From the NCBI GenBank assembly GCA_035627515.1, contig DASPLQ010000012.1:778331-842330 (forward strand): a DNA stretch of 64,000 nt, written 5' to 3'. Shown piece after piece: positions 23,691 through 63,644 of the stretch (position 1 is its first letter; each line of letters opens with the position of its first letter). A program made the position numbers and the translations under genes. Below the pieces are notes generated by a model. It was given only the letters and a program-made list of their open reading frames with translations, had not been told where the DNA came from and ran no database searches. This DNA comes from Vitreimonas sp. (lineage in GTDB: Bacteria > Patescibacteriota > Microgenomatia > UBA1400 > PJMF01).

Positions 23691-23737
23691 ACTTTTACTT
23701 GCTTTATAAAGGTTTTTTCTGAGATACTGATGGGATG
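23691..23737 (+). promoter_or_regulatory. conserved promoter cassette copy 1. Extended -10 (TGaGATACT) ending 6 nt before the ATG predicts a leaderless transcript.
   Basis: ACTTTTaCTTGCTTTaTAaAGGtTTTTTCTGAGATACTGaTGggATG. 35 of 43 positions identical to copy 2 (25634..25680). Confidence 0.45.
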
Positions 23738-25627: not shown

Positions 25628-25633
25628 ATTCTG

Positions 25634-25680
25634 ATTGTTGCTTGCGTGTCAAAGGGTTTTTCTGAGATACTGGTGAAATG
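25634..25680 (+). promoter_or_regulatory. conserved promoter cassette copy 2 (leaderless-type, extended -10 TGaGATACT 6 nt before the ATG)
   Basis: TTGCTTGCgTgtcAAAGGgTTTTTCTGAGATACTGgTGaaATG. Confidence 0.45.
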
Positions 25681-29684: not shown

Positions 29685-29723
29685 CTTTTGCTTGCTTTGT
29701 ACTAAAAAATTCTGCATACTAAC
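29685..29723 (+). promoter_or_regulatory. conserved promoter cassette copy 3 (TGcATACT extended -10), about 40 nt upstream of the 29765 gene
   Basis: ACTTTTgCTTGCTTTgTActAAAAAATTCTGcATACTAA begins right after the alaS stop, exactly as copy 1 begins after its upstream stop. Confidence 0.4.
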
Positions 29724-29764
29724 TTCAACACAGTTACTGTTGTGATGACTGTGGTGAAAGTTGT

Positions 29765-34961: not shown

Positions 34962-35348
34962 ATGATTCCCAAAACACTTGCTATTGATTTTGGTTTAAGC
35001 CGAGTTGGTTTGGCTGTTTCGTATGGGACGTTGGCAGAGCCGTTGAAAATTATTCCTCATGATGATCGGTTATTTGCGACGTTAGCTCAAGTCATTGTAG
35101 CTGAAGGAGTAGAGCAAATTGTGGTAGGTATGTCTGAAAATGAGATGGCTGAAAAAACACGGGGATTTGTAGAGCAGTTAAAAACCCAGCTTTCGCTGCC
35201 CATTTTCATGACTGACGAAACGCTTAGTTCTAAAACCACCCATACTAAGCAGCTCGAAGCTCATTTAAGTTTATCCAAGCGCCAACAACCCATCGATCAC
35301 TTGGCTGCCGCTGAGTTTCTTCAAGAGTGGCTGGATGAGCATAGTTAA
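34962..35348 (+). CDS. ruvX: Holliday-junction resolvase-like protein YqgF/RuvX
   Basis: N-terminal LAIDFGLSRVGLAVS motif and an RNase H-like fold pattern. About 128 aa. Confidence 0.8.
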   Translation: MIPKTLAIDFGLSRVGLAVSYGTLAEPLKIIPHDDRLFATLAQVIVAEGVEQIVVGMSENEMAEKTRGFVEQLKTQLSLPIFMTDETLSSKTTHTKQLEAHLSLSKRQQPIDHLAAAEFLQEWLDEHS

Positions 35349-36346
35349 TGTTATACTCTGTAGCGATGTCGTTTTTATTAAAGACTTTCTTCATTGGCGC
35401 CTTATTAGCTATTCTCGTATTAGCTGGTGTAACAGGTTATGCCTACACGCAGCTGCAACCAGCCTCATCTACCCCGACTGATTCAACAACGTTTGTGATT
35501 CCCAAAGGTCAAGCCATTTCCATTATTGGTCACCGCCTGGCGGAAGAAGGCTTAATCAAAAATCCCTTAGCTTTTCGGGCGTATGTTAAGTTCAAAGGTT
35601 TGGGTGATAAGCTCCAGGCAGGGTCATTCAAGCTTAATAGTGGTATGTCTCTCGGCGAGATCGCTCAACAGTTAACGACTGGCACTGATGACCTCTGGAT
35701 TACGATTCCCGAAGGCTGGCGAGTGGAGGAAATTGCTGATAGTTTAGATCGCCAGGAGTTAGGATCGTTTGATAAAGATGAGTTCTTAGAGTTAGCTGAT
35801 GTCAGTGAGGGCAAACTTTATCCTGATACCTACTTAGTTTCTCGAGACTCTACTGCTGCTACCATTTATAACTTACTGACCAACACTTTCGAGCAAAAAG
35901 TAGTGGAAGGTTTGGCTGATGAGATTGAAGCCTCCGGTCATACGCTGGAGGAAGCAATAATTATGGCTTCTATAATTGAGCGCGAGTCCTCTGGTGAAGA
36001 GGATATGGCAGTAGTCTCAGGTATTTTATGGAATCGTTTTGAGATAGGGATGCCACTCCAGGCTGATGCAACGCTCCAGTATGTAAAGGGATATGATAAA
36101 ACTCAACAATCCTGGTGGGTACCACCTTTGGCAGTAGATAAAGAGCTCAACTCTCCCTTTAATACCTACAAAAACCCCGGTTTACCTCCCCGGCCAATTG
36201 CGAGCCCAGGCGCCGCTGCTATCAAAGCTGCTCTCGATCCTGCTCAGACAAACGACTTGTTTTATATTCATGATCGCCAGGGCCAGATTCACACAGCCCG
36301 TACTTTGGATGAGCACAATGCCAATGTGCAGAAGTATTTGAGATAA
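35348..36346 (+). CDS. mltG: endolytic murein transglycosylase MltG (YceG family)
   Basis: N-terminal TM, a LysM-like region, and conserved ITIPEGW, LYPDTY, ASIIERE and GLPPRPIASPG motifs. Confidence 0.8.
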   Translation: MLYSVAMSFLLKTFFIGALLAILVLAGVTGYAYTQLQPASSTPTDSTTFVIPKGQAISIIGHRLAEEGLIKNPLAFRAYVKFKGLGDKLQAGSFKLNSGMSLGEIAQQLTTGTDDLWITIPEGWRVEEIADSLDRQELGSFDKDEFLELADVSEGKLYPDTYLVSRDSTAATIYNLLTNTFEQKVVEGLADEIEASGHTLEEAIIMASIIERESSGEEDMAVVSGILWNRFEIGMPLQADATLQYVKGYDKTQQSWWVPPLAVDKELNSPFNTYKNPGLPPRPIASPGAAAIKAALDPAQTNDLFYIHDRQGQIHTARTLDEHNANVQKYLR

Positions 36347-36396
36347 TAAATTCCAAATCTCAAAATTCAAAGTTTGACATTTGGATTTTGGAATTT
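36347..36396 (+). repeat. A/T-rich hairpin repeat, copy X1 (related copy X2 at 57211..57271)
   Basis: AAATTCCAAATCTCAAAATTCAAAG...ATTTGGATTTTGGAATTT. The arms form a ~16-bp interrupted stem. It starts right after the mltG stop codon. Confidence 0.5.
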
Positions 36397-36409
36397 TTAT
36401 AACTCCCGC

Positions 36410-36438
36410 TTGCACTTATCTGCCAGACTTGTTATACT
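36410..36438 (+). promoter_or_regulatory. sigma70-like promoter for rpoB-rpoC
   Basis: TTGCAC -17 nt- TATACT. Predicts a ~170-nt 5' UTR before the rpoB ATG. Confidence 0.5.
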
Positions 36439-36612
36439 ACCCCCTATTCTCAAAAACGTAGCAATATAATTCCTGGAAAATTCTCTTGCTGACAGACATT
36501 GCCATATTCAGCACCAAGTAAATCAGCACAGGGCACGGTTGTGGCCTGGCTTTTTGTGTGCCTGTTAGTAAGAGAGTTTTCCACAGTGAAAATACGGATA
36601 AAAGGAGTCTTC

Positions 36613-39600
36613 ATGCCGACACAGCAACGCGCCTATTGGGGGAAACAACATCGCAACCTTCCCGAGTTAAATTTAGTTAGGTTACAACTACAAAGCTATG
36701 AGCGCTTTTTAAGTAAAGGCATCGGCGAGGCGCTAGCAGAGGTAAATGGTGAAAAAGGTATTGAAGATTTTACCGGCAAAAACTGGCGAATTACTTTTGG
36801 TGAGTATCGCTTTGGTAAGCCTAAATACACCTTAGCCCAAGCTAAGCGTAAGGCTGTCAGCTACGACGTGCCTCTCTACGTAGAAGCTACATTACTCAAT
36901 AAAAAAACTGGCGAAGAGCAAACCCAGGAAGTGTTTTTAGGTGATATTCCTAAGATGACCCCTGTGGGTACCTTTGTGATCAATGGTATTGAGCGGGCAG
37001 TGGTGACGCAGTTAGTGCGCTCTCCAGGTATTTTCTTTTCAGGTGATGAAGATCCAGCGACCGGTCGGATGCTCTACCGGGCTGAACTGCGTCCTAATCG
37101 TGGCTCATGGTTAGAAATTGGTGTTGGTCGTCGCGATGTGATTACAGTTAAGATCGATCGCCGCCGTAAGATGCCAGTTACCGTTTTGTTACGGGCTATG
37201 GGCTATGGCACCGATGAAGAATTATTAGATTTATTCAAAGATCTCAAAGATAAAGATGAATCTGATTTGATTGCCAAAACTATCGAAAAAGATCCTACCA
37301 AGAGCCAAGCAGAAGCTTTAATTGAGCTTTACGAAAAAATGCGCCCTGGTGAGCCAGCCGTGTTAGATAACGCTAAGGAATACTTAAAACAATTATTCTT
37401 CGATCCTCGTCGTTATGATCTGGATGAAGTCGGTCGTTATAAGCTTAACCGTCGCTTGAAGGTCAACGCTGATCAAAAAACCACTGTCCTCACTACTGAA
37501 GACGCCGTGGCTGCTGTTCGTTACTTGATCAAATTACAAAATGGCGAAGGTAAAACTGATGACATCGATCACTTGAGTAACCGCCGCGTTCGCCGGATTG
37601 GTGAGCTCGTCCAAACCAATGCTTTGCGGATTGGTTTAATTCGCTTAGAGCGTTCCATCCGTGAAAAAATGTCTTTGACCAAAACAGATGAAGTTTTAAC
37701 TCCAGCTGCTTTAGTCAATGCTCGGCCGTTGATCGCTACTATCTCTGAATTTTTCCGCCGTAACCGCTTATCCACTATCTTAGATCAAACTAACCCGTTA
37801 TCAGAAATTGATAACCTGCGTCGGTTGTCAGTGATGGGTAGTGGTGGTGTGACTCGTGAGCGCGCCTCATTCTCAATGCGTGACATCAACGCGTCTCAAT
37901 ATTCACGGATTGACCCCGTCCGGTCTCCAGAAGGTCCAAACATCGGTTTGGTTACCTACTTAGCTTTATACGCTCAAGTTAATGATTTTGGTTTCTTAGA
38001 ATCTCCTTATCACAAAGTGGAGAACGTCAAAGGCAAGATGAAGATTTCAGATCAAATCGTATATCTGGCCGCTGATGATGAAGAAGAATACAAAATTACC
38101 CATGCCGGTGTCGAAGTCAGTGATGATGATGTCATTACCCAAGCTTGGGTGCCAATGCGGTCTATGAACCAATTCATCGAAGGCCCAGTAGAAGACGTGC
38201 AGTATATTGACGTCGTTCCTCGCCAAGTGATTGGTACTTCTGCCTCTTTAATTCCCTTTATCTCTCATGACGAAGCTAACCGGGCTTTGATGGGTACGCA
38301 CATGCAATGTCAGGCTGTGCCCTTGATCAAACCTCAAGCTCCGATTGTAGGTACCGGTATGGAAGAAGCCGTAGCTACTGCCATGGGACGCACCGTTCGG
38401 GCTCGCCACAGTGGTGTGGTGAAGTATGTGGACGCTCAGCAAATCGTGATTGATCTGGATACTAAAGAAGTGGCCAAAGCCAAAGATTTAGCTGCCAGTG
38501 ATGAAAATGCGATGGTGACTGTCGAAGGCAGTACTGAGGTCTATCATATCGAAAAGTTTGTCCGTACTTCACAAAGTACTTCATACTCTCAAAAACCAAT
38601 GGTTAGTCTTGGTCAAAAAATCAAAGCTGGTGACATCATTATTGATGGCCCATCTGCTGATGGTGGTGAGTTAGCCTTGGGTGCTAACTTGATCATTGCT
38701 TACACTTCATTTGAAGGATTAGGGTATGAAGACGCGATCGTCATTTCTGATCGTTTAGTCAAAGAAGATGTCTTGACCTCAGTCCAAATCAGTGAGCACC
38801 GCGCTCAAGTGATGGACACCAAGTTAGGTCCTGAAGAATTGACTAACGATATTCCTAATGTTTCTGAGGCTTACTTAAGTAACTTGACGCCTGATGGCAT
38901 TATCCGGGTTGGTTCAGTTGTGGGTGCTGGTGACATCCTGGTGGGTAAGATTGCCCCCAAAGGTGAAACCGAGTTGACTCCAGAAGAGCGGTTATTGCGC
39001 GCTATCTTTGGTGAGAAATCACGCGAAGTTCGTGACACCTCCCTCCGTGTGCCTCACGGTGAAGGTGGTACTGTCATCGAAGTCCAAGTACTCGATCGTA
39101 CTTTAGGTGATGAACTTGACCCTGGTACTAATATGGAAGTGATTGTCAAAGTCGCTCAAACTCGGAAGATCACTGTCGGTGACAAGGTAGCCGGTCGTCA
39201 TGGTAACAAGGGTGTTATCTCGAAGATTGTGCCTCAAGCTGACATGCCTCATCTCGAAGATGGGACTCCAGTCGATATCATCATTTCACCACTGTCAGTC
39301 TTGGCTCGTATGAACTTAGGTCAGCTGTTAGAAGCTCACTTGGGTTGGGCAGCCAGTAAATTAGGCTATAAAGTGGCGATCCCAGCTTTTGAAGAAATTA
39401 ATGAAAGCAAAATTTGGGAAGAGCTCGAGAGAGCTGGTTTACCACGCGATGGTAAAGCTCAATTAATCGATGGCCGCACCGGCTTACCATTTAGTGAGAA
39501 GACCGTGGTTGGTATCGGTTATATCTTGAAGCTGATCCACATGGTGGAAGACAAGACTCATGCTCGGTCCACTGGTCCATACTCGTTAGTCACACAACAA

Positions 39601-43881: not shown

Positions 43882-43918
43882 AAAGCCCTGGTCCGCCAAC
43901 TGGCGGATGGGGCTTTTT
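43882..43918 (+). terminator. intrinsic terminator after rpoC
   Basis: GCCCtgGTCCGCC-aact-GGCGGAtgGGGC hairpin followed by TTTTT. Confidence 0.7.
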
Positions 43919-44130: not shown

Positions 44131-44210
44131 ATACGTACTTTATAGGAAATTTCTTGCATTAAGCTTGCATACAGCAAACTCTACCTATCTCAGTATCAAC
44201 CTGTAGAAAA

Positions 44211-44291
44211 GTGAACCTGGACACTGTCTATCGTGTGCAACATGTACATTTTGACTGCAATGACTTGTGTCCAGGCGAACTTCTAAAGGAA
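44211..44291 (+). repeat. copy B of the ~76-nt conserved intergenic element (copy A at 8652..8735)
   Basis: Contains a 9-bp stem CCTGGACAC/GTGTCCAGG around the conserved core ATGTACATTTTGACTGCAATGAC. Same orientation as copy A. Confidence 0.55.
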
Positions 44292-51528: not shown

Positions 51529-52725
<1,197 letters not shown>

Positions 52726-52767
52726 TTTTAGTTGATTGCGCTTAGCGCAATTGCATTGAAAACAAAA

Positions 52768-52796
52768 GCCCTCTCCGCTTATGGAGGGGGCTTTTT
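52768..52796 (+). terminator. intrinsic terminator after tuf
   Basis: GCCCTCTCC-gcttat-GGAGGGGGC followed by TTTTT. A second small hairpin (TTGCGCTtAGCGCAA) lies just upstream. Confidence 0.8.
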
Positions 52797-52844
52797 GGTA
52801 GAAAAATTTTTATCAGTGGTAAAATAATCAACACTTTATTTCCT

Positions 52845-53369
52845 ATGTCATTTTTACTCAAGTATCGTGAGCTTGGTATTTTTCCCCACCCATGGAAATG
52901 GAGAGACTATGAAGTGGGTGATGATGTGCGCTTATTAGCCTTCATTAATGAAATCAGAACGCCATTTACTTCCAAAAGGCGAATCAAAAAAGTTATTAAG
53001 CAATTGCAGTCCGTCGATCAAATTCATCAATTAAGTAGCCAAGATGATGAGTTAGAGACTTTTTTCCCTATCATTGCCATGATCTTTAGAAGGGAGTTAT
53101 CAGACAGTTTACAAAAAGTTATTATCCAGCCCCCCCAGCAGGTGTTTCGCCTCAAACCTGACCGTGAACTTGACCTGACTCAATTAGTCCGTATTAGCGC
53201 TAGCAGCACCGCCCCCGATAGCAGAGAACTGCAAGGCTATAAGTTTCATCCTTATTATGTGGAAACTGAAGCTGGAGCGATCAGTCTGGCCGCTAAAGTA
53301 CCTCAGCTAATTTTTGAGGATATTAGCTATATTATTTATCAAAAATTGTTGGCTGAAGCCAAGAAATAA
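52845..53369 (+). CDS. hypothetical protein H6 (174 aa), tandem paralog of H7
   Basis: Shared segments with H7: KYRE, ELETFFPIIAMIF vs ELELFFPLMAQLF, and HPYYVETEAGAISL vs FRYYAETELGYLTL. Confidence 0.5.
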   Translation: MSFLLKYRELGIFPHPWKWRDYEVGDDVRLLAFINEIRTPFTSKRRIKKVIKQLQSVDQIHQLSSQDDELETFFPIIAMIFRRELSDSLQKVIIQPPQQVFRLKPDRELDLTQLVRISASSTAPDSRELQGYKFHPYYVETEAGAISLAAKVPQLIFEDISYIIYQKLLAEAKK

Positions 53370-53417
53370 AATACTCACTGATTACACACATCAAATGGAG
53401 TGCTAGAATAACTGACT

Positions 53418-53933
53418 ATGAGCATGAGAGTTGGGGTAAAGTACCGAGAGTTTATAGAATTCAGTGACATCGAAAGATGGTCAGTGTTTAAATCAAAACC
53501 AGAAGCCTACGCATTTATCTCAACTATAACTCAACCCTTAGATACAGAGGAGTACCTACTCAGTATTATTGATTCTTTGGAAGATTATCGCCAACTGCAA
53601 GAAGTTCTCCCAGAAAGTAGAGAGCTGGAATTATTTTTCCCCCTCATGGCTCAGCTTTTTATTTTAAACAACCAAGAGCATGGCATACGGGTTCCACAAC
53701 GGTCTGCCAATGAGCGATACCGACGGGGGGCAAATTTAATAGTCCATCAACCATCAAATCGCTCTGTGCAAATTTACCCCTCACCTAAAGCACTGCACCC
53801 GTATGATGCTCCACACATATTCCGCTATTATGCTGAGACGGAATTAGGATATTTAACACTGCAAACGCGTGCGACTGATGCCGAGCGAAATAGTCTCAGG
53901 GAGATAATTTTTCAAGTGTTGAAGGGAACTTAA
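53418..53933 (+). CDS. hypothetical protein H7 (171 aa), tandem paralog of H6
   Basis: See H6. Confidence 0.5.
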   Translation: MSMRVGVKYREFIEFSDIERWSVFKSKPEAYAFISTITQPLDTEEYLLSIIDSLEDYRQLQEVLPESRELELFFPLMAQLFILNNQEHGIRVPQRSANERYRRGANLIVHQPSNRSVQIYPSPKALHPYDAPHIFRYYAETELGYLTLQTRATDAERNSLREIIFQVLKGT

Positions 53934-54020
53934 GTTTCTCTCAGGGTTGTAAAAAAAGGTGGTAAAAAGAGAGTATTTGCAGCTATGAAGTGGGAAGAGC
54001 AGCCGGCTCAAAACTCCCCT

Positions 54021-54050
54021 CTTGCTACCAGGTGAAATTCTCTGTATAAT
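54021..54050 (+). promoter_or_regulatory. sigma70-like promoter for the S10 operon
   Basis: TTGCTA -17 nt- TATAAT, about 75 nt upstream of rpsJ. Coordinates +/-1. Confidence 0.6.
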
Positions 54051-54123
54051 CACGCTCTGTCTTTAAAAATGTAAGAGGATTGATAAAAATTCGTAAGAAG
54101 CGAAATTTAACAAGTGAAACAGT

Positions 54124-54450
54124 ATGGCAGCGACCACATCTACAGCTAGCTACAAAATCCGAGTCCGGCTTAAGGCCTATGATCATCGGGTGATTGACGA
54201 AGCTTCTAAAAAGATTTTAGAAACTGCTTTATCAACCGGTGCTAAAGTAATTGGTCCGGTGCCTTTGCCAACTAACCACAAATGGTTTACTGTTTTGGCA
54301 TCACCACATACTGATAAAGATGCTCAAGAGCATTACACAATCCGAACGCACAAACGCTTAATTGAAATTGTCAATCCAACTGGTAAAACTATTGATTCTC
54401 TAATGCACTTAGAGTTACCAGCCGGTGTTGATATTCAAATTAAGATGTAG
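54124..54450 (+). CDS. rpsJ: 30S ribosomal protein S10
   Basis: [15 protein letters not shown]...conserved S10 fold sequence. Confidence 0.9.
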
Positions 54451-54505
54451 CCTCCTCGTGAGTCTACTTTTTTAATGACAAAAATAAACAAAAAAAAAGA
54501 TATAT

Positions 54506-55240
54506 ATGTTAACGACAGTATTCGCCACCAAACTCGGCATGACCCAGGCTTGGACCAAAGAGGGCAAGCGCATGGCTGTGACTCGTTGTAAAGTCACACC
54601 GAATGTAGTCGTTGGTACTCAAAATCCCCAAGAAAAATCAGTTGTTTTAGAAATTGGTTACGGCACTAAAAAGCTCAAAAACATGAACAAACCACTCAGA
54701 TCGCAATTAGAGAAGAGTGGTTTTTCAATGGGTATTACCCAAGTCAAAGGCGTAAAAGTCGCTCTTGATGGTGAAACCCCAGCTCCTAAAGCTGGTGACA
54801 GTATTACTATTGATCAAGTTTTACAAATCGGTGATATCGTCAAAGTTCAAGGCATCACTAAAGGTCGCGGCTTTGCTGGTGCCGTCAAACGCCATGGTTT
54901 TGCTGGTGGCCCTGAAACTCACGGTCAATCAGATCGTGTCCGTGCTGTCGGTTCTATCGGCGCTGGTACTACTCCAGGTCGTGTTTTCAAAGGCAAACGC
55001 ATGCCTGGCCATTATGGTGTCGATACCAAAACTGTGACTGGGTTAGTCATTTTACACATCGATCCTACTACGCAAGAAGTATGGTTGAGCGGTCCAGTCC
55101 CTGGCCACAATCAAGCAGTCGTACGAATTTTGAAAACCGGTCAAACGAAGCAAGTTGAATTATTAAACGTGCAAAAATCTGAAGCTGTGGTCGAAGCAGC
55201 TCCAGCTGAAGAAGCACCAGTAGCAGAGGCACAAGCATAA
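54506..55240 (+). CDS. rplC: 50S ribosomal protein L3
   Basis: KLGMTQAW...GFAGAVKRHGF motifs. Short Ala/Glu-rich C-terminal tail. Confidence 0.9.
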   Translation: MLTTVFATKLGMTQAWTKEGKRMAVTRCKVTPNVVVGTQNPQEKSVVLEIGYGTKKLKNMNKPLRSQLEKSGFSMGITQVKGVKVALDGETPAPKAGDSITIDQVLQIGDIVKVQGITKGRGFAGAVKRHGFAGGPETHGQSDRVRAVGSIGAGTTPGRVFKGKRMPGHYGVDTKTVTGLVILHIDPTTQEVWLSGPVPGHNQAVVRILKTGQTKQVELLNVQKSEAVVEAAPAEEAPVAEAQA

Positions 55241-55247
55241 GTATCTC

Positions 55248-56069
55248 ATGAAAGTCACACACGTTACTTCTACCGGCAAACACAGCGAACTCGCACTCAA
55301 TGATGCTGTGTTCGGTGCGCCCGCAAACTTGAGCTTATTAAGCCAAGCTGTGCGTGTGTACCAATCAAACTTGCGCCAAGGGAGTAGTAAGGTCAAAACC
55401 CGTTCTGAAATTAACCGCACTAAAAAGAAATGGTTTAAACAAAAAGGTACCGGTAATGCTCGCCATGGTGCTCGTACCTCCAACATCTTTGTAGGTGGTG
55501 GTGTTTCTCACGGTCCTAATGGTGAACAAAACTGGTCTTTAAACATGAGTCAAACTATGAAACACCAAGCTTTGGTTAATGCCTTGAGCATTCAAGCTTC
55601 CAAAATCGTGGTGCATGATGGTTTAAGCGCTTTGGGTGGTAAAACTGCTGAGGCCATGACCGCCTTGAAAGCTGTCGTCGAGCCTACTGAAAAAGTGTTA
55701 GTAATTATTCACAGTCCAACACTCAACATCATTCGCGGCTTGCGCAATGTAGAGACGGTCTTAGTTACCCAAGCTGATCGTGTCACCGCTTTAGAAGTTT
55801 CTTTAGCTGATAGAATTGTGTTAACGAGTGAAGCCATTACTACTTTAGAAAAACGCTTGACTGCTAAACCCACCAAACCAGCTGCTAAAACTGTAGCTGC
55901 AACCAGTGACAAAGCTGTCAAAGCTGAAACCAAAGCTCAGCCCGTTGCTAAAGCCGCCAAGCCCGCAGCCAAAAAAGCAGCGACTGCGCCTAAAGCTGAA
56001 CCTAAGAAAGCAGCCACCAAAAAAGCCGCTCCTAAAAAAGAAGCCGTGAAAGCTAAAAAAACTAAATAA
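55248..56069 (+). CDS. rplD: 50S ribosomal protein L4, with a ~70-aa Ala/Lys/Pro-rich C-terminal extension
   Basis: L4 core (KQKGTGNARHGARTSNIFVGGGVSHGP). Tail is AKPTKPAAKTVAATSDKAVKAETKAQPVAKAAKPAAKKAA... Confidence 0.9.
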   Translation: MKVTHVTSTGKHSELALNDAVFGAPANLSLLSQAVRVYQSNLRQGSSKVKTRSEINRTKKKWFKQKGTGNARHGARTSNIFVGGGVSHGPNGEQNWSLNMSQTMKHQALVNALSIQASKIVVHDGLSALGGKTAEAMTALKAVVEPTEKVLVIIHSPTLNIIRGLRNVETVLVTQADRVTALEVSLADRIVLTSEAITTLEKRLTAKPTKPAAKTVAATSDKAVKAETKAQPVAKAAKPAAKKAATAPKAEPKKAATKKAAPKKEAVKAKKTK

Positions 56070-56074
56070 ATATC

Positions 56075-56371
56075 ATGAACGCTTTTATTATTAAACAACC
56101 AGTCATTACCGAAAAATCAATGTTACTTGCTAACACTGAAAACACTTACACGTTTGAAGTGGCTCGCAATGCAAATAAACAACAGATTCAAGATGCTGTG
56201 GAAAAACTGTATGGTGTGGCAGTTGAGTCAGTCAACACCGTGGTGGGCCATAACTCACCAGTACGAACTGGTCGTAAACGTTTGAAGAGCGTCCAAACTA
56301 AAGTCAAAAAAGCTATGGTCAAGTTGAAAGCTGGTCAAACAATTGCCTTGTTTGACTTATCAGGGAACTAA
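56075..56371 (+). CDS. rplW: 50S ribosomal protein L23
   Basis: Typical L23 N-terminus (IIKQPVITEKS) and size. Confidence 0.9.
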   Translation: MNAFIIKQPVITEKSMLLANTENTYTFEVARNANKQQIQDAVEKLYGVAVESVNTVVGHNSPVRTGRKRLKSVQTKVKKAMVKLKAGQTIALFDLSGN

Positions 56372-56376
56372 GTATC

Positions 56377-57210
56377 ATGTTAATTAAACGTAAAGCTACT
56401 AGCGCCGGACGTCGACACCAAGTGTCGGTGGATCGCAGCCACCTTCACAAAGGTGAACCTGAAAAAGGGTTGATGGCTACCGGTCACTTGAAACGACAAG
56501 GTCGCGGCTATAAAGGTCGTATCACTGTCCGTCATCGTGGTGGTGGTGTCAAAAAACGTTTGCGAATTTTGGACTGGAAACGCAATAAGTTCGGCGTACC
56601 AGGCAAAATTGAGCGCTTAGAATATGATCCATTGCGCAGTGCAAACATCGCCTTAGTTATTTATAATGATGGTGAGAAACGCTACATGGTAGCACCTGAT
56701 GGTCTGAATGTTGGTCAAGAAGTGCTCTCAGGTCCCACTGCTGAAGTACGAGTTGGTAATGCTTTACCTTTAAAAAACATCCCTGTCGGAACTCCGATTC
56801 ATAACTTAGAGTTACACGCAGGTAAAGGTGGTCAAATCGTTCGCGGAGCAGGAACAGCAGCTTATATCCAAGCTAAAGAAGGTGCTATGGTGACTGTGCA
56901 GTTGCCTTCTCGAGAATTAAGATTGCTAAATGCCGAGTGTTTCGCTACAATCGGCCAAGTCGGAAATCAAGATCACAAAAACCAAAAAATTGGTAAAGCT
57001 GGCCGCAAGCGCTTAATGGGTATTCGTCCTGGAGTGCGGGGAACTGCACAACATCCAGACAGTCACCCACATGGTGGTGGTGAAGGCCGGAGTGGTATTG
57101 GTCTCAAATATCCCAAGACTCCATGGGGCAAACATGCCTTGGGTACTAAGACACGTAATAAACGCAAGAACAGTAGTAAGTATATTGTGAGAGATAGAAG
57201 AGTTAAGTAA
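56377..57210 (+). CDS. rplB: 50S ribosomal protein L2
   Basis: Conserved L2 motifs (GRNxxGxIT-like region, PGVRGTAQHPDSHPHGGGEG). Confidence 0.95.
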   Translation: MLIKRKATSAGRRHQVSVDRSHLHKGEPEKGLMATGHLKRQGRGYKGRITVRHRGGGVKKRLRILDWKRNKFGVPGKIERLEYDPLRSANIALVIYNDGEKRYMVAPDGLNVGQEVLSGPTAEVRVGNALPLKNIPVGTPIHNLELHAGKGGQIVRGAGTAAYIQAKEGAMVTVQLPSRELRLLNAECFATIGQVGNQDHKNQKIGKAGRKRLMGIRPGVRGTAQHPDSHPHGGGEGRSGIGLKYPKTPWGKHALGTKTRNKRKNSSKYIVRDRRVK

Positions 57211-57271
57211 AATCCAAATCCCAAAATCCAAACGTTAAAATTGGATTTTGAAATTTGAAACTTGGAATTTG
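57211..57271 (+). repeat. A/T-rich hairpin repeat, copy X2 (related to X1 at 36347..36396), in the rplB-rpsS spacer
   Basis: AAAATCCAAATCCCAAAATCCAAACGttaaaaTTGGATTTTGAAATTTGAAACTTGGAATTT, with a perfect 10-bp stem CAAAATCCAA/TTGGATTTTG. Starts right after the rplB stop codon. Confidence 0.5.
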
Positions 57272-57277
57272 AGCACT

Positions 57278-57562
57278 ATGTCTAGATCAAGTAAAAAAGG
57301 ACCATTTATTGACCCAAAGCTCTTAAAAAAGGTTTTGGCTCAGAAATCGTCAGGCACTAAAGCTCCTATCAAAACTTGGAGCCGGTCATGTGTGATTTCA
57401 CCTGACTTTGTAGGTCACACGTTTATGGTGCATCAAGGTAAGAAGTTTGTAGAGGTATTTGTTAGTGAGGCCATGGTGGGTCACAAGCTGGGAGAATTTG
57501 CTCCAACTCGTAACTTCCGCGGTCACGGTAAAGTGGTTAAACGCGTCTTGAGTAAGACGTAA
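57278..57562 (+). CDS. rpsS: 30S ribosomal protein S19
   Basis: [12 protein letters not shown]...[12 protein letters not shown]...[11 protein letters not shown]. The track ORF begins at an upstream TTG at 57248 inside the repeat. Confidence 0.9.
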
Positions 57563-57606
57563 AAAATTGATCCGCCAGTTGGCGGACGAAAATTGGAATT
57601 TAAATA

Positions 57607-58026
57607 ATGTTAATTACGGCACAGCAAAAATACATTCGTCAGACACCACGCAAGTTGCGTTTGGTGGCTAACACTGTCAAGAAATTGAGCTTGGATAAAG
57701 CCATCAATCAATTAGCAGTGATTGAACGCCGGGCTACTTTGCCAGTTATGAAAGTAGTCAAGCAAGCCGTCGCTAACGCTCTTAACAACCATAAATTACA
57801 GTTCAGCGACTTAGTATTAAAAGATATTCAAGTTGGTGAAGGTCCACGCTACCGCCGTTTTCGAGCTGTTAGTCGTGGTCGCGCTCATGACGTCAAGAAA
57901 AGAACCAGTCACGTGACTGTGACATTGATGACTCGTGACGAAATCAAGCCCGTTGCTGCCCCTGCAGCCGAGCCTGTTAAAAAAGCAGTTAAACAAGACA
58001 AGAGTACCAAAAAGGAGACTAAGTAA
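57607..58026 (+). CDS. rplV: 50S ribosomal protein L22, with a short Ala/Pro/Lys C-terminal tail
   Basis: L22 core (RKLRLVANTV...RFRAVSRGRAHDVKKRTSHVTV). Confidence 0.9.
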   Translation: MLITAQQKYIRQTPRKLRLVANTVKKLSLDKAINQLAVIERRATLPVMKVVKQAVANALNNHKLQFSDLVLKDIQVGEGPRYRRFRAVSRGRAHDVKKRTSHVTVTLMTRDEIKPVAAPAAEPVKKAVKQDKSTKKETK

Positions 58027-58055
58027 CTTCATTACAGGAGTTGCTCATCACGCAC

Positions 58056-58709
58056 ATGGGACAAAAAGTAAATCCAACTAGCTTTCGTATCGGTAACACT
58101 TTCACCTGGAAATCACGCTGGTTTGCAGATAAAAGTAGTTACTCTGACACCATGCTCGAGGATTATTCCTTAAGAAAGTTCTTATCAGGAAAATTATCAA
58201 ATGCTGGTTTAGTCCAAATTGATATTGAACGATCATTAACAAGTATCAAAGTCATGTTATATGTTTCACGCCCTGGTGTTGTTATCGGCAAAGGTGGCGT
58301 AAACTTAGAAGCTATCAAAAAAGACATTGAACGCATTTTGAACGTCGCTAAAAAGAAAAAAGATAAAGTCCGCGTGGAATTAAAAGTTGAAGAAATTAAG
58401 AAACCTGATTTAAGTGCTCGCTTAGTAGCAGAACGAATTGCTGAGCAATTAATCAAACGTTTCCCTCACCGCCGTGCAGTGATGCAAGCTTTAGAAAAAG
58501 TGATGGGAGCCGGTGCTAAGGGCGTAAAAATCGCTTTGTCAGGTCGGATTGGTGGCGCCGAGATTGGTCGCAGTGAGAAATACTTCCAAGGAAGTGTGCC
58601 CACTCAAACTTTACGCGCTAATATTGATTATTACCAATCTCCAGCTCGTACTCGATCTGGATACGTGGGTATTAAGGTCTGGATTTATAAAGGTGAAGTA
58701 GTTCATTAA
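58056..58709 (+). CDS. rpsC: 30S ribosomal protein S3
   Basis: MGQKVNPTSFRIG N-terminus and KH domain. The track ORF starts 15 nt upstream at 58041. Confidence 0.9.
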   Translation: MGQKVNPTSFRIGNTFTWKSRWFADKSSYSDTMLEDYSLRKFLSGKLSNAGLVQIDIERSLTSIKVMLYVSRPGVVIGKGGVNLEAIKKDIERILNVAKKKKDKVRVELKVEEIKKPDLSARLVAERIAEQLIKRFPHRRAVMQALEKVMGAGAKGVKIALSGRIGGAEIGRSEKYFQGSVPTQTLRANIDYYQSPARTRSGYVGIKVWIYKGEVVH

Positions 58710-58715
58710 GAAGAT

Positions 58716-59120
58716 ATGTTACAACCGAAAAAATCAAAATTCAGAAAACAATTTAGAGGCAAGAACCGTGGTGTAGCCTTACGTGGTTCGAGTGTCACTT
58801 TTGGTGATTTTGGTTTGAAAGCAGTCACGGCTGGCTGGATTACTTCTCGCCAAATTGAAGCTGCTCGTAAAAAAATTACCTATGCTACCAAACGTGCTGG
58901 TCGTTACTGGATGAAAGTGTTTCCTCACAAACCAGTTACTCATAAACCAGTGGGTGTGAAAATGGGCTCTGGTAAAGGTGATATTGATAAATACGTAGCA
59001 GTCATTAAACCAGGTATGGTGTTGTTTGAAATTGGTGGTGTGACAGAGCAAGAAGCTCGCTCAGCTTTCACCAAAGCTGGTCACAAGTTGTCAGTGAAAA
59101 CGACCTTAATTAAGAAATAA
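58716..59120 (+). CDS. rplP: 50S ribosomal protein L16
   Basis: MLQPKKSKFRKQFRGK...conserved L16 sequence. Confidence 0.9.
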   Translation: MLQPKKSKFRKQFRGKNRGVALRGSSVTFGDFGLKAVTAGWITSRQIEAARKKITYATKRAGRYWMKVFPHKPVTHKPVGVKMGSGKGDIDKYVAVIKPGMVLFEIGGVTEQEARSAFTKAGHKLSVKTTLIKK

Positions 59121-59127
59121 AACGAGT

Positions 59128-59331
59128 ATGAAGCGCAACGATATTAAAGCTCTAAAAGATAAATCAGTAGCTGAGTTACAAAAACAACTCGCTCAGTTAG
59201 TGGTGGAGCTGGCTCGCAAGCGCCATGAGAAAAAAGTTGGTAAAATAGTTAACTCACGATCTGTTTCAGTGATGAGTGATGACATTGCTCGCATTAAAAC
59301 AATCTTAAAAGAGAAAGAGTTGGTAGGATAA
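59128..59331 (+). CDS. rpmC: 50S ribosomal protein L29
   Basis: 67-aa helical protein (ALKDKSVAELQKQLAQLVVELARKR) in the canonical position. Confidence 0.85.
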   Translation: MKRNDIKALKDKSVAELQKQLAQLVVELARKRHEKKVGKIVNSRSVSVMSDDIARIKTILKEKELVG

Positions 59332-59334
59332 ATC

Positions 59335-59568
59335 ATGAAAACATTACAAGGCACTATTACTTCGCTCAAGAACACAGCTACTGCTCGTGTGACTGTGACG
59401 ACTCGCTGGCAACATCCGTTGTACAAAAAGTACGTCAAGCGCAGTAAAAATTATGCCTGTCATTATGAGAACATTGCCTTAGCTGAAGGTGATTTGGTCA
59501 CGATCCAAGAGTGCCGACCCATCAGCAAGACCAAACGTTTTAAAGTCGTAGCAAAAGTAGAAAACTAA
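59335..59568 (+). CDS. rpsQ: 30S ribosomal protein S17
   Basis: [37 protein letters not shown]-fold S17. Confidence 0.9.
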
Positions 59569-59569
59569 C

Positions 59570-59944
59570 ATGATTCAATTACGAACCGTACTACAAGTTG
59601 CAGATAACAGTGGCGCCCGACAGCTTCGCGTCATTCAAGTCCATGGTGGTTCACGCCGCCGGTTTGGACACGTGGGTGACATCGTCAGTGCTTCCGTTAT
59701 TGCTGCTGATCCTAAAGGGACGGTTAAAAAAGGCGAAAAAGTCAAAGCTGTGATTGTCCGCACTCACAAGGAAGCCCGCCGCGCTAGTGGCGAGTACATC
59801 CGCTTTGATGATAACGCTGCTGTAGTGATCGAGTCTCGCAGTAATCCTAATCCCATTGGAACTCGCGTTTTTGGACCGGTTGCTCGCGAAGTAAAAGATA
59901 AAGGTTTTGCTAAAATTGCAAGTTTAGCACCAGAAGTATTGTAA
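59570..59944 (+). CDS. rplN: 50S ribosomal protein L14
   Basis: [17 protein letters not shown]...conserved L14. Confidence 0.95.
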
Positions 59945-59948
59945 ACGT

Positions 59949-60263
59949 ATGAAATTTAAAGTCGGCGATCAAGTCATAGTCACCAGCGGCAAAGATAAAG
60001 GTAAAAAAAGCAGTATCACTGCCGTTTTACCTAAAGACAATAAAGTCGTGGTTGAAGGTTTGAACATGTTTGTCAAACACGTCAAACCACAAGGTGATCG
60101 TGAAGGTCAACGCATTCAACGCGAACGAGCTTTGGATGTCGCCAAAGTCGCTATCTTAAACAATGGTAAGCCTGATCGGATCGGCTACAAAGTCGAAAAA
60201 GATGGCACCAAAGTCAGAGTGTATAAGAAAACTGGAAAAGTAATTGAGAGTAAAAAGAAATAA
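59949..60263 (+). CDS. rplX: 50S ribosomal protein L24
   Basis: KVGDQVIVTSGKDKGKK, KOW motif. Confidence 0.9.
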   Translation: MKFKVGDQVIVTSGKDKGKKSSITAVLPKDNKVVVEGLNMFVKHVKPQGDREGQRIQRERALDVAKVAILNNGKPDRIGYKVEKDGTKVRVYKKTGKVIESKKK

Positions 60264-60265
60264 AT

Positions 60266-60817
60266 ATGAATCGCTTACAAACATTCTACCAAGAGACTGT
60301 GGCTCCAACTCTGATGAAAGAGATGAAGTATAGTACGGTCATGGCTATCCCTAAGATTAAAAAGGTAGTCATTAACACTGGTATTTCCCAACCTCAGGAG
60401 CCTCGGGCTCGCCGTGAGGTGGTCAATAATGTAGCTGAGCAATTTCAAGTTATCAGTGGTCAAAAAGCGCAGATCACCACTGCTCGCAAAGCCATCTCTA
60501 ACTTTAAGTTGCGCAAAGGTGATCCGATGGGTGTGGTAGTTACGCTCCGCAGCCAATTCATGTGGGAGTTCTTAGACAAATTGATTTCAGTAGCTTTACC
60601 TCGGGTAAAAGATTTCCAAGGTGTGTCTCGCACAGCTTTCGATGGTCAAGGCAACTACAACTTGGGAATTGAAGAGCAAATCATCTTCCCTGAAATTGAG
60701 TACGATAAAATTGATCAAGTCCGAAGTTTACAAATTACAGTAGTGACTTCAGCTTCTACTAATGATGAAGCTCGTCGCTTGCTCGAATTATTAGGTATGC
60801 CTTTCAAAAAGGCATAA
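60266..60817 (+). CDS. rplE: 50S ribosomal protein L5
   Basis: L5 conserved regions (KIVINTGI-like, RKGDPMGVVVTLR). Confidence 0.9.
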   Translation: MNRLQTFYQETVAPTLMKEMKYSTVMAIPKIKKVVINTGISQPQEPRARREVVNNVAEQFQVISGQKAQITTARKAISNFKLRKGDPMGVVVTLRSQFMWEFLDKLISVALPRVKDFQGVSRTAFDGQGNYNLGIEEQIIFPEIEYDKIDQVRSLQITVVTSASTNDEARRLLELLGMPFKKA

Positions 60818-60839
60818 TAGATGAGGTTGAGATTATAGT

Positions 60840-61070
60840 ATGGCTAAAAAATCAAAAATCGCTAAAGCTCAAAAACTGTTACGGAAACGTGACATGTTAC
60901 TCCAATCTGGAGTCAAAAAAGCAAACCGCGTATCGACTCGAGGAGAAAACCGGTGTAAAATAACTGGCCGTCCACGTGGATACATGCGTTTCTTCGGTTT
61001 GAGTCGGTTGACTTTCCGTGAGTTAGCAGCCAAAGGCGAATTACCCGGTGTGGTGAAAGCAAGTAAGTAA
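60840..61070 (+). CDS. rpsN: 30S ribosomal protein S14 (short form without the Cys4 zinc knuckle)
   Basis: 76 aa, ...[39 protein letters not shown]. Only one Cys, so not the Zn-ribbon type. Confidence 0.85.
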
Positions 61071-61083
61071 GTGAATAACTAAT

Positions 61084-61473
61084 ATGACTGATCCTATCGC
61101 AGACATGATCATCCGAATAAAAAATGCTTTACTCGTTCGTAAAGCAGAAGTTGAGATTCCTTTCTCCAAAATGAAGCAATCAATTGCCACCATTTTGAAG
61201 GAAGAAAACTACATCGAAGAAATCGAAGTAAAACCAACTACACCTCAAGCTACTTTAGTCTTGAAGTTGAAGTATGTAGGTCGAACCCCAGCTATCACCG
61301 ACGTCAAGCGCTTATCAAAGCCTGGTCGCCGTATGTATGCTACCGTCGATCAAATTCCTCAATCATTGGGTGGATATGGATTAACTTTGGTCTCTACCAG
61401 TAAAGGAGTCATGACTGCTACTAAAGCTCGCCAACTCAATGTCGGCGGCGAAGTACTGTGTCAGATCTGGTAA
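61084..61473 (+). CDS. rpsH: 30S ribosomal protein S8
   Basis: MTDPIADMIIRIKNA...conserved S8. Confidence 0.9.
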   Translation: MTDPIADMIIRIKNALLVRKAEVEIPFSKMKQSIATILKEENYIEEIEVKPTTPQATLVLKLKYVGRTPAITDVKRLSKPGRRMYATVDQIPQSLGGYGLTLVSTSKGVMTATKARQLNVGGEVLCQIW

Positions 61474-61478
61474 TCGTT

Positions 61479-62015
61479 ATGTCAAGAATTGGTCGCAAAC
61501 CTATCACTGTTCCATCCGGAGTTACAATTGAGACTCAAGATCATCAAATTGTAGTCCGTGGCCCTAAAGGTGAACTCAAAGTAGAGTTACTCTCAGGCGT
61601 TAAAATGGAGAAACAAGAAGACAAAGTTGTGTTGAGTCGCGTTAATGATGAAAAGCAAAATCGCGCTAATCATGGCTTGATTCGCAGTTTAGTCAATAAT
61701 GCTGTGGCTGGTGTAACAACTGGTTACAAAAAAACCTTGAAATTATTGGGTACTGGATACCGCGTCTCGATGAAAGGGGCTGGTATTTCCTTAGCGGTGG
61801 GTTTCTCCCATCCAGTTGATATTGCTGCTCCAGCTGGTATCAAGCTCAGTATCGAAGGTAACGACACCATTTATATTGAAGGTATCGATAAACAATTAGT
61901 CGGTCAAGTTGCAGCTAATATCCGCAAAGTCCGACCACCTGAACCTTACAAGGGTAAAGGTATTCGTTATGAAGATGAAGTAGTTAGAAGAAAACAAGGT
62001 AAAGCTGCTGCTTAA
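61479..62015 (+). CDS. rplF: 50S ribosomal protein L6
   Basis: MSRIGRKPITVP N-terminus and two L6 repeats. The track ORF starts at an upstream ATG at 61458 overlapping rpsH. Confidence 0.9.
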   Translation: MSRIGRKPITVPSGVTIETQDHQIVVRGPKGELKVELLSGVKMEKQEDKVVLSRVNDEKQNRANHGLIRSLVNNAVAGVTTGYKKTLKLLGTGYRVSMKGAGISLAVGFSHPVDIAAPAGIKLSIEGNDTIYIEGIDKQLVGQVAANIRKVRPPEPYKGKGIRYEDEVVRRKQGKAAA

Positions 62016-62020
62016 CGCCA

Positions 62021-62371: not shown

Positions 62372-62374
62372 ATC

Positions 62375-63082
62375 ATGGCTAATCAACATCAACAACGCAA
62401 TCAGATGCAACAAGGCGAAAACCAAGTCAATGAATTTGATGAAAAAGTAGTGCAGATCTCTCGGGTTTCCAAGAAAACCAAGGGTGGCAACAAAATGGGT
62501 TTCTCCATTTTAATGGTAGTTGGTGACCGCAAAGGTCGCGTTGGTGTCGGTTTAGGTAAAGCTGGCGATGTGTTGTCAGCCATGCGCAAAGGTGTCAAAA
62601 AAGCTAAGAAAAAGTTAATCTCTGTGCCTTTAGATGGTACAACTATCCCGTTTGCTTTGACCGTTAAAAAAGGTGCTAGTCGTATCATGTTGAAACCAGC
62701 TCCTAAGGGTTCTGGAGTCATCGCTGGTGGACCTGTGCGCGCCGTGGTGGAAGCTGCAGGTATTCGTGACATCTCAAGCAAAATTTTAGGAACCACTAAT
62801 CAAGCTTCAAATGTGTATGCCACGTTTGATGCTCTGAAACGCATTGAAACTATCGTTAAGTTAAAAGGTATTAAATTGAAGTCTATTGCCGAAATCGAAA
62901 CTGAAGAAGCTAAGAAGATGCAAGAGCTCCAGGAAAAAGCTAAGAAAACTGAAAAAGCCCCTGAAGTGAGTAAAGAAGCTAAGGTTGAAGACAAAACCGA
63001 GAAAAGTGCAGACAAAGCTACCAAACCAGCCAAGAAGCCGGTAGCGAAAAAGGAAAGTAAGAAAAAGGAATTAAGTAACTAA
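62375..63082 (+). CDS. rpsE: 30S ribosomal protein S5, with N- and C-terminal low-complexity extensions (~60-aa Lys/Glu-rich tail)
   Basis: S5 dsRBD and C-terminal domain (VVQISRVSKKTKGGNKMGFSILMVVGDRKGRVGVGLGKAGDV). Tail is EEAKKMQELQEKAKKTEKAPEVSKEAKVEDKTEK... Confidence 0.9.
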   Translation: MANQHQQRNQMQQGENQVNEFDEKVVQISRVSKKTKGGNKMGFSILMVVGDRKGRVGVGLGKAGDVLSAMRKGVKKAKKKLISVPLDGTTIPFALTVKKGASRIMLKPAPKGSGVIAGGPVRAVVEAAGIRDISSKILGTTNQASNVYATFDALKRIETIVKLKGIKLKSIAEIETEEAKKMQELQEKAKKTEKAPEVSKEAKVEDKTEKSADKATKPAKKPVAKKESKKKELSN

Positions 63083-63162
63083 GTAAATGAGTAACTAAGT
63101 AATTCGCTAACGCGCTAAATTACTTAATTACTGAATTACTCAATAACTCAATTACTCAACTC
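63083..63162 (+). repeat. 80-nt A/T-rich spacer with short direct repeats, at the position where rpmD (L30) normally lies
   Basis: AGTAACTAAGTAA x2, CGCTAA x2, and four 8-mer repeats ATTACTNA (attactga attactca ataactca attactca). No ORF. Confidence 0.5.
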
Positions 63163-63603: not shown

Positions 63604-63644
63604 CCCCAGGTCTTGACTTTTCCCACCGTTCCCGTAATACTCAG

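Follow-up and report, generated by a model that had tools for sequence, protein, structure and literature searches.

A small foldback repeat built of inverted heptamer arrays at gene junctions of a Patescibacteria genome

Two A/T-rich hairpins, X1 and X2, are found in a 64,000-nucleotide stretch (hereafter the window, taken at its full length) of a genome from the Patescibacteria, or candidate phyla radiation (CPR). X1 is located between mltG and rpoB, and X2 fills the spacer between rplB and rpsS within the S10 operon of ribosomal protein (r-protein) genes. They represent a single small foldback repeat element in two copies, and each arm is a tandem array of 7-nucleotide units. We favor, with modest confidence, the explanation that the element is a foldback repeat at the level of DNA and belongs among the heptanucleotide simple-sequence repeats, similar to the long simple-sequence repeats (LSSRs) and short tandemly repeated repetitive (STRR) sequences of other bacteria, but in an inverted-pair form. 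It would be of recent origin and tolerated as its hairpin loops the inserted bases out of the mRNA, any other effect being secondary.

Every arm of X1 and X2 comprises about three to five units, TTGGAWT in one arm and the complement in the other, a periodicity overlooked in an earlier note on this DNA. Tandem Repeats Finder (TRF) calls three of the four arms as period-7 arrays (Table 1), and the 3' arm of X1, with 2.6 copies, is called at a lower threshold. The arms are separated by 1 nt in X1 and 9 nt in X2, are 79-88% complementary, and are recovered as pairs also by unit matching. Like the heptanucleotide simple-sequence repeats, both elements are intergenic and contain about three or more head-to-tail copies of a 7-nt unit, and like inverted heptamer-array pairs, each consists of two convergent arrays of one unit situated close together. 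The final two units in the 3' arm of X2 have no partners in the 5' arm, and remain unpaired 5' of the rpsS start when the + strand is folded.

Direct reading places both sequences where the earlier note had reported them, and the likeness that it had described between their arms is real but extends beyond the arms. Their alignment is colinear over both elements and takes in the leading TAA, the two arms and the loop between them; 42 of its 51 columns are identical. This alignment scores 54, as compared with 17.3 +/- 3.2 (maximum 37) for dinucleotide-shuffled versions of X2, of which 0 of 5000 reach 54; elsewhere in the window no score exceeds 25. When up to three mismatches are allowed, TTGGATTTTGRAATTT matches only X1 and X2 in the window, plus one three-mismatch match at 49337, and its matches number 9, against 3.2 expected, with 0 of 100 shuffles reaching 9. 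Loci with X-family units number two in the 64 kb and zero in a 3.2-kb extension (L001).

The observation that each element starts right after a stop codon also stands, because X1 follows the mltG stop codon and opens with a second TAA at 36347, and the first triplet of X2 is itself the rplB stop codon (TAA, 57208-57210). The 67-nt gap that X2 creates is indeed unusual: across 79 related loci the median rplB-rpsS spacer measures 13 nt, and 67 nt is reached in only one of the 45 closest loci. X1 does lie just upstream of the probable rpoB promoter, whose sequence TTGCAC-N17-TATACT is conserved in two relatives. The reported lack of a U-tract holds for X2; TTTTTAT, partly within the stem, follows X1.

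Table 1. Positions, unit composition and predicted RNA folding of X1, X2, a third element and two neighboring features of the window
Feature	Position	Strand	Composition or context	RNA fold, + strand	RNA fold, - strand
X1, whole foldback element	36347..36398	+	directly 3' of mltG stop (36344-36346), 12 nt 5' of rpoB -35 box	-15.3 kcal/mol, z -3.3	-16.5 kcal/mol, z -3.6
X1 5' arm	36348..36371	+	heptamer array AAATTCC AAATCTC AAAATTC AAA; TRF period 7, AAATTCA, 3.3 copies; inverted-repeat arm I3		
X1 3' arm	36373..36396	+	TTTGACA TTTGGAT TTTGGAA TTT; contains TTGACA 36374-36379, with TTATAA 17 nt on		
X2, whole foldback element	57208..57271	+	fills rplB-rpsS spacer; first triplet is rplB stop TAA; rpsS ATG at 57278	-13.6 kcal/mol, z -2.3	-21.1 kcal/mol, z -4.4
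X2 5' arm	57211..57232	+	heptamer array AAATCC AAATCCC AAAATCC AAA; TRF period 7, AAAATCC, 3.4 copies; arm I7		
X2 3' arm	57241..57270	+	TTGGATT TTGAAAT TTGAAAC TTGGAAT TT; TRF period 7, TTTGAAA, 3.7 copies		
Third element	63066..63159	+	octamer units TAAGTAAC x3.9, then AATTACTC x5.2; rpsE-rplO junction; TRF, inverted repeat I1	-21.6 kcal/mol, z -3.0	-38.2 kcal/mol, z -8.0
Probable rpoB promoter	36410..36438	+	TTGCAC-N17-TATACT; conserved in relatives by alignment; adjoining upstream X1 segment not conserved		
Single TTGGAATTT unit	57593..57601	+	just 5' of rplV start, by direct reading; AAAATTGGAT there in closest relative (L082)		

A third element in the window, at the rpsE-rplO junction, has the same design as X1 and X2, but is composed of octamers. 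The rpsE stop codon (63080-63082) is contained within its 5' arm, and the rplO ATG (63163) is 4 nt beyond its 3' arm. Positions 52655-64000 of the window are 100% identical to an independent Logan assembly, so X2 and the third element are not assembly artifacts.

Comparison with relatives indicates that these elements are lineage-specific. The rplB-rpsS spacer of 67 nt corresponds to 13 nt in the closest relative found (L082, RplB 87% identical) and to 2 and 6 nt in relatives with RplB 81-82% identical, and the rpsE-rplO spacer measures 80 nt in the window versus 3 and 12 nt in relatives. Around X1, mltG-rpoB synteny is retained in two relatives (MltG 62-65% identical), together with a promoter-like CTTGCA-N17-TAnAnT at the position of the rpoB promoter, but the stretch of the spacer that holds X1 is unrelated in sequence. 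Because the junctions of the nearest relatives are short and the X1 stretch is not conserved, the three elements are additions specific to this lineage and, as judged from these comparisons, recently gained. No strain closer than the relative with 87% RplB identity was found. Sampled regions of close relatives contain only scattered single matches to X-family units. In three CPR relatives (L010, L019 and L020), the rplB-rpsS spacer carries a different, nonperiodic hairpin, TTGTTAAAATATATCGAT...ATCGATAGAATCAACAA, that is conserved across the three.

The earlier note had reserved chance similarity for the case in which X1 and X2 have no other occurrences and the junctions of relatives are short. 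The junctions are indeed short, yet chance A/T similarity does not follow, because the likeness of X1 and X2 far exceeds chance. The same note had suggested an r-protein autoregulatory mimic or protein-binding site, and the low-complexity, A/T-rich sequence and the location of X2 inside the S10 operon might have favored either chance spacer likeness or a conserved mimic of this kind. The results refute both, and we give them almost no weight: shuffled sequences do not reproduce the X1-X2 alignment, the rplB-rpsS junctions of relatives lack the element, no Rfam family is matched, and X1 is located outside the r-protein operons, at the unrelated mltG-rpoB junction. A protein-binding site is likewise not supported, and the elements are lineage-specific rather than an r-protein autoregulatory structure. 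The Rfam search of the whole window gave no match at the gathering threshold, and for positions 36250-36650, searched at E up to 1, the only match was at chance level (E = 0.85, 17.5 bits, versus a gathering score of 60).

Several other candidate functions were considered and set aside. A sense-strand intrinsic terminator can be rejected at X2 and at the third element and is a weak candidate at X1, and the terminator scanner calls none at the three sites. X1 has a run of five T residues but an A/U-rich stem, whereas the terminator-like hairpins elsewhere in the window are GC rich with T-runs. A promoter within X1 (TTGACA-N17-TTATAA) is a weak match on which the scanner made no call, and because TTGACA/TGTCAA recurs in related elements elsewhere, a variant of the unit is a likelier reading of this sequence than a promoter. 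Complementarity to the 3' tail of 16S rRNA, with the E. coli sequence as the reference, amounts to only 4 nt and was dismissed. Motifs with GGA in the 3' arms that resemble Shine-Dalgarno (SD) or CsrA-binding sequences are absent from the octamer element and from many CPR elements.

A survey of CPR loci reveals that X1 and X2 belong to a wider class. It comprised 84 sources (1.37 Mb) that were fetched around rplB and therefore represent r-protein neighborhoods; arrays of at least 2.5 copies were required, genes were called crudely as longest open reading frames (ORFs), and thresholds were heuristic. Period-7 arrays are the main intergenic tandem repeat, with 62 in 105 kb of intergenic sequence versus 44 in 1268 kb called as coding. 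Period-8 arrays divide into 25 intergenic and 26 coding, and periods that are multiples of three are mostly coding. Among the intergenic arrays, 18 of the 62 with heptamers and 8 of the 25 with octamers have an inverted partner within 80 nt, as compared with 3 and 0 in a reverse-only control. When paired arrays are merged, 28 hairpin elements result, spread over 13 sources that include Doudnabacteria, Yanofskybacteria, Saccharibacteria, Moranbacteria and others. These elements are mostly located between co-directional genes and begin a few nucleotides from the stop codon, and 16 of 25 end no more than 12 nt before the next start codon, often without an SD sequence. Units vary among genomes. 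Those at different junctions of a single genome resemble each other slightly more than those of different genomes do: at least six of seven bases are shared in 22% of comparisons within a genome versus 11% between genomes (permutation p = 0.02). One source, L081, has at least four copies with the same composite layout and a complex unit order common to the copies.

Similar palindromes occur beyond the CPR. A scan of Joint Genome Institute (JGI) metagenome contigs with a 24-nt pattern derived from the X1/X2 core yielded 75 loci, and about 25 distinct matches are palindromes of 40-173 nt composed of AAATCC, AAATTC and CAAAAT heptamers, mostly abutting gene ends. Six loci come from a single assembly, Omnitrophica WOR_2 SM23_72, which is not a typical CPR genome because it has full sets of arginine and lysine biosynthesis genes. 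A palindrome of AAATCC-type heptamers also occupies an r-protein operon junction, rplV-rpsC (L162, 449-513), in a distant organism whose r-proteins are 40-52% identical to those of the window. The likeness of X1 and X2 to the Omnitrophota elements is real (scores of 36-63), but it is no evidence of transfer because the matches were preselected with the X1/X2 pattern, which makes the comparison partly circular; a covariance model of the family was set aside on the same ground. A scan of viral contigs with a hairpin pattern gave 29 matches, and the only contig with multiple matches belongs to a GC-rich phage, where the palindrome is perfect but unrelated. The earlier proposal of a small dispersed repeat is the one that finds support, in that X1 and X2 are colinear copies and palindromic heptamer arrays form a wider class in CPR, Omnitrophota and other metagenomic contigs.

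The comparison of SM23_72 with two relatives (ArgG 93% identical) shows how such arrays change. At the dapA-dapB junction, two of the Omnitrophota genomes have palindromes of 137 and 153 nt and the third has a 17-nt spacer, and the SD sequence and start codon are conserved in all. Each of the three genomes has an argG-argH spacer of 41 nt (L160, 8666-8706; L197, 11183-11223; L198, 11183-11223), which consists of four heptamers plus an SD sequence. The unit is different in each (ATCCAAA, TTCGGAG or TTCAAAG), and by direct reading the short flanking coding sequences are approximately 85-90% identical. In L197, the units of a palindrome at the aspDH junction are similar to the relative's native spacer. 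These comparisons indicate that arrays turn over fast, can be cleanly gained or lost, and can be seeded locally, and they hint at a constraint on period and copy number for some arrays. In L197 and L198, a TTCNNAG-type unit, always in sense orientation, also fills several further junctions in the arg/dap cluster.

The single TTGGAATTT unit near the rplV start in the window is probably native sequence near the ribosome binding site (RBS), and sequence of this sort could seed arrays. Under the favored explanation, arrays would lengthen and shorten through replication slippage, and the second arm might be produced by intrastrand template switching or by an inverted duplication. Copies would later arise at other spacers near stop codons in the same genome. 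In transcripts, the inserted bases would be looped out as the elements fold into weak hairpins rich in A and U. Insertions might thereby be tolerated in tightly coupled r-protein junctions, because the stop codon and the downstream start region would stay close. Secondary benefits are conceivable, for example protection of the 3' end of the upstream cistron, or, in the case of X1, weak termination or insulation between mltG and the rpoB promoter.

Of the long simple-sequence repeats in prokaryotes, heptamers are reported to be the commonest, and slippage of the polymerase is the cause proposed for them (Mrazek 2007, cited in PMC4679880 and PMC4692102). GGGAATC arrays in Xanthomonas form 70-75 inverted pairs per genome, and usually the type of repeat is kept while its length varies among species (PMC4692102). 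Nostoc PCC 7120 has GGGGA(T/C)T heptameric repeats, and both sets belong to the heptamer-dominated long simple-sequence repeats (Rehm et al. 2015, PMC4692102; Mrazek 2007, as cited there). The window elements share with both an intergenic location, tandem 7-nt units and a length that varies between relatives, and the inverted pairs in Xanthomonas, as in X1 and X2, are two convergent arrays able to form stem-loops. The GGAAT or GGATT core of the window units resembles the Xanthomonas and Nostoc units, although this likeness is by reading only. In contrast, the window units are A/T rich, the arrays are short (three to five units), the copies are colinear, the host belongs to the CPR, and the sites are in r-protein and RNA-polymerase gene clusters. 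Also, the window units lack the potential for G-quadruplexes by which the Xanthomonas and Nostoc repeats are defined, because they have GG or GGG at most: TTGGATT, TTGGAAT and TTGAAAT contain no run of three or more G residues, and the sole GGG is on the minus strand of X2.

STRR hairpins located between hupS and hupL in cyanobacteria have been proposed to affect transcript stability or translational coupling (PMC2670836). Like the window elements, they are hairpin-capable 7-bp repeats in operon-internal spacers, and the roles suggested (stability, coupling or termination) are unproven. The units of STRR1 to STRR3 are CCCCAGT, TTGGTCA and CAACAGT, which are unlike those of X1 and X2. STRRs are present in high copy in filamentous cyanobacteria, whereas the X elements are in a CPR genome with two copies in the stretch examined. 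TAACTGA arrays of the Beggiatoaceae are situated just 5' of start codons, including those in r-protein operons, mostly without an SD sequence (MacGregor 2015, PMC4679880). Heptamers near start codons, sites in r-protein operons, and a patchy phylogenetic spread are common to these arrays and the window elements. However, TAACTGA is found in 169 direct sets and one indirect set, and the X elements, which are inverted pairs of a different unit, are not TAACTGA arrays. The paper library that was searched yielded no description of such arrays in CPR or Omnitrophota.

The predicted RNA structures bear on whether the elements act in mRNA. The claim that X1 and X2 fold into hairpins is upheld, with a stem of 10 + 5 bp on the + strand of X2, and the predicted hairpins are more stable than those of shuffled sequences, yet weak and A/U rich. 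As single-stranded DNA, both strands fold about equally (approximately -11 kcal/mol for either strand of X1). As RNA, each of the three window elements folds better on the antisense strand (Table 1), as do 21 of 25 elements between co-directional genes (Wilcoxon p = 0.0004), or 18 of 25 by composition-normalized z-score (p = 0.03). At mismatched positions between arms, A.C in the sense RNA is observed 42 times and G.U 23 times (binomial p = 0.025). These data suggest that the elements were not selected as a sense-RNA helix, and the arm mismatches do not keep sense-RNA pairing. Selection for a sense-mRNA helix would predict the reverse of both the folding asymmetry and the mismatch bias. The usual C-to-T bias of the non-template strand likewise predicts the opposite. 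The asymmetry might stem from selection to weaken mRNA hairpins, from a function on the antisense strand, or from a sense strand that is enriched in A.

A selected cis-acting element in the mRNA would be a functional interpretation of these hairpins. The stem might couple cistrons, with a ribosome that terminates at a stop codon at or within the 5' arm melting it and freeing a start region held by the 3' arm, or it might be a barrier to RNase III or 3'-exonucleases that sets cistron levels, in the manner of repetitive extragenic palindromic (REP) sequences. Such a role is suggested by the way the elements span from stop codon to start region, with the placement close to start codons and frequent lack of an SD sequence in the CPR elements noted above, and by the third element, in which the rpsE stop is inside one arm and the rplO start is adjacent to the other. 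Sense folds also surpass those of shuffles (z of -2.3 to -4.4), the length of the four-heptamer argG-argH spacer is constant in three Omnitrophota, and stability or coupling has been proposed for the hupS-hupL hairpins (PMC2670836). However, the same junctions lack elements in the nearest relatives, 217 nt separate X1 from the start codon that follows it, sense pairing is not favored in either the folds or the mismatches, and the RBS-proximal units of X2 are unpaired in any case. As to the RNA processing or attenuation site proposed in the earlier note, lineage-specific presence argues against a conserved role, and the arm mismatches do not keep sense pairing intact. We regard selection for an mRNA function as unlikely.

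The strand asymmetry might alternatively reflect action on the opposite strand, where the elements would be terminators of, or barriers to, antisense transcription entering highly expressed operons. The better antisense folding is as this idea expects; in addition, the minus-strand stems are followed by U-rich sequence, and a nearby GC hairpin (57571-57586) is a canonical terminator on the minus strand only. Yet the U-richness of the antisense tails is mostly due to Lys-rich C-termini and A-rich spacers, few G-C pairs occur in the A/U-rich stems, promoter-like matches are at chance level and reveal no antisense promoter, and the asymmetry is modest once composition is normalized. Antisense action is accordingly a very improbable explanation.

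Mobility must also be weighed, because several families of mobile or dispersed palindromes have related features. REP sequences and the bacterial interspersed mosaic elements (BIMEs) that contain them, and MITEs (miniature transposable elements with inverted repeats) such as Correia elements, are small multicopy extragenic palindromes that are found after stop codons and are co-transcribed as hairpins. Eukaryotic foldback transposons have long inverted arms of short tandem repeats, and the arms of X1 and X2 likewise consist of tandem repeats. Relative to REP/BIME sequences, the stems of X1 and X2 are far more A/T rich and weaker, the arms are periodic, and no REP head was found. A nonautonomous MITE-, REP- or foldback-like element, moved by an enzyme encoded elsewhere and inserting beside TAA stop codons, could account for the agreement of X1 and X2 in unit order, loop position and leading TAA, as well as for the four or more copies with one layout in L081 and in the SM23_72 contigs, and for elements of similar layout in many metagenomes. 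Also, short GC-rich hairpins are precisely nested in some copies (L125 and L164 versus L148; L175), so these spacers do receive insertions. Against this, no direct repeat indicative of target-site duplication flanks X1 or X2, and none is seen when filled and empty sites are compared at rplB-rpsS (window versus L082) or dapA-dapB. No transposase or REP-associated tyrosine transposase (RAYT) was identified in the window, whose proteins were not exhaustively screened. The aspDH palindrome of L197 is built of units that resemble the local native spacer, and the likeness across genomes is partly circular, owing to the 24-nt search pattern from X1/X2. On balance, a mobile element of this type is improbable.

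The favored explanation, a foldback simple-sequence repeat that is tolerated in transcripts, also has evidence weighing against it. Better folding of the antisense RNA is not predicted by a purely neutral model. The complex unit order common to X1 and X2, to the copies in L081 and to those in the SM23_72 contigs fits copy-and-paste mobility better than independent slippage in situ. An argG-argH spacer that is constant at four heptamers while its unit changes hints at selection on the array itself. Moreover, the search for copies in the same genome spans the 64-kb window and about 3 kb more of a 1.41-Mb genome, and the behavior of the elements in mRNA is something that we infer.

A bolder proposal would unite these observations in a cross-phylum foldback heptamer family with a GGAWT-type core and a layout in which outer tandem heptamers lead to a CAAAATYCAAA core and a loop, after which the same order is mirrored. 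Such a family might colonize stop-to-start junctions in operons of uncultivated bacteria from two or more phyla, Patescibacteria and Omnitrophota among them, and be kept periodic by sequence-specific machinery, either a mobilizing enzyme or an RNA- or DNA-binding factor, that acts or is selected strand-asymmetrically. We offer this as a tentative and rather unlikely idea. If it is true, the strand-asymmetric machinery would explain the better antisense pairing, and the four-heptamer argG-argH spacer would be a functional module rather than junk.

The elements have a practical consequence for annotation, in that long spacers in CPR r-protein operons should not be annotated as conserved leaders or attenuators; here they appear to be recent repeat insertions. 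Small, streamlined genomes seem to tolerate and regenerate palindromic heptamer arrays at highly expressed, tightly coupled junctions, and the elements offer a natural setting in which to test the amount of structure that a stop-to-start junction withstands. The class pattern also links observations so far described separately: the dominance of periods 7 and 8 among intergenic tandem repeats, the roughly 30% of arrays in inverted pairs, the slightly raised similarity of units within a genome, and the arrays of Xanthomonas, cyanobacteria and Beggiatoaceae. If the elements are functional, they might give organisms lacking many regulators a simple and evolvable means to tune the ratios of cistrons.

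The genes that flank the elements were identified with Pfam as YceG/MltG (35348-36346), RpoB (ATG at 36613), L2 (56377-57210) and S19 (ATG at 57278), and the gene order around X1 is sortase, ruvX, mltG, rpoB, rpoC. The top RplB matches are all to Patescibacteria/CPR assemblies, with identities of at most 87%, and the host is a member of this group. In positions 62375-63603, the S5 gene (rpsE) is followed directly by the L15 gene (rplO) with no rpmD (L30) gene in between, which is consistent with CPR affiliation.

Some other hairpins in the window were observed. In the rpsS-rplV spacer, the GC hairpin TCCGCCAGTTGGCGGA (57571-57586) corresponds exactly, as a reverse complement, to the rpoC terminator hairpin (43892-43907). 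It is the top match in the terminator scan, is followed by a T-run on the minus strand only, and looks like a terminator facing against the S10 operon. GC hairpins like TCCGCCAGTTGGCGGA adjoin or nest in A/T heptamer palindromes of metagenomic contigs L169, L125, L164 and L175. Another element, of approximately 85 nt, is present in two copies that are about 85% identical, one at 44206-44290 and the other past the end of the window (L001, 12998-13085, corresponding to about 65.7 kb in window coordinates). It forms a long imperfect hairpin, CTGGACA...TGTCCAG, with a CTTGCA -35-like box before each copy, and the copies are located 5' of unrelated small ORFs (77 and 73 amino acids). It has no Rfam match and may be a small RNA or leader family.

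Finally, the spacers at 23691-23734, 25628-25677 and 29685-29764 share promoter-like CTTGCTT...GATACT or CATACT motifs, and AAGGKTTTTTCTGAGATACTGRTG is common to two spacers. The motif-bearing spacers precede tandem genes encoding proteins of approximately 610-630 amino acids (at 23735, 25678, 27804 and 29765), each of which seems to have its own promoter.

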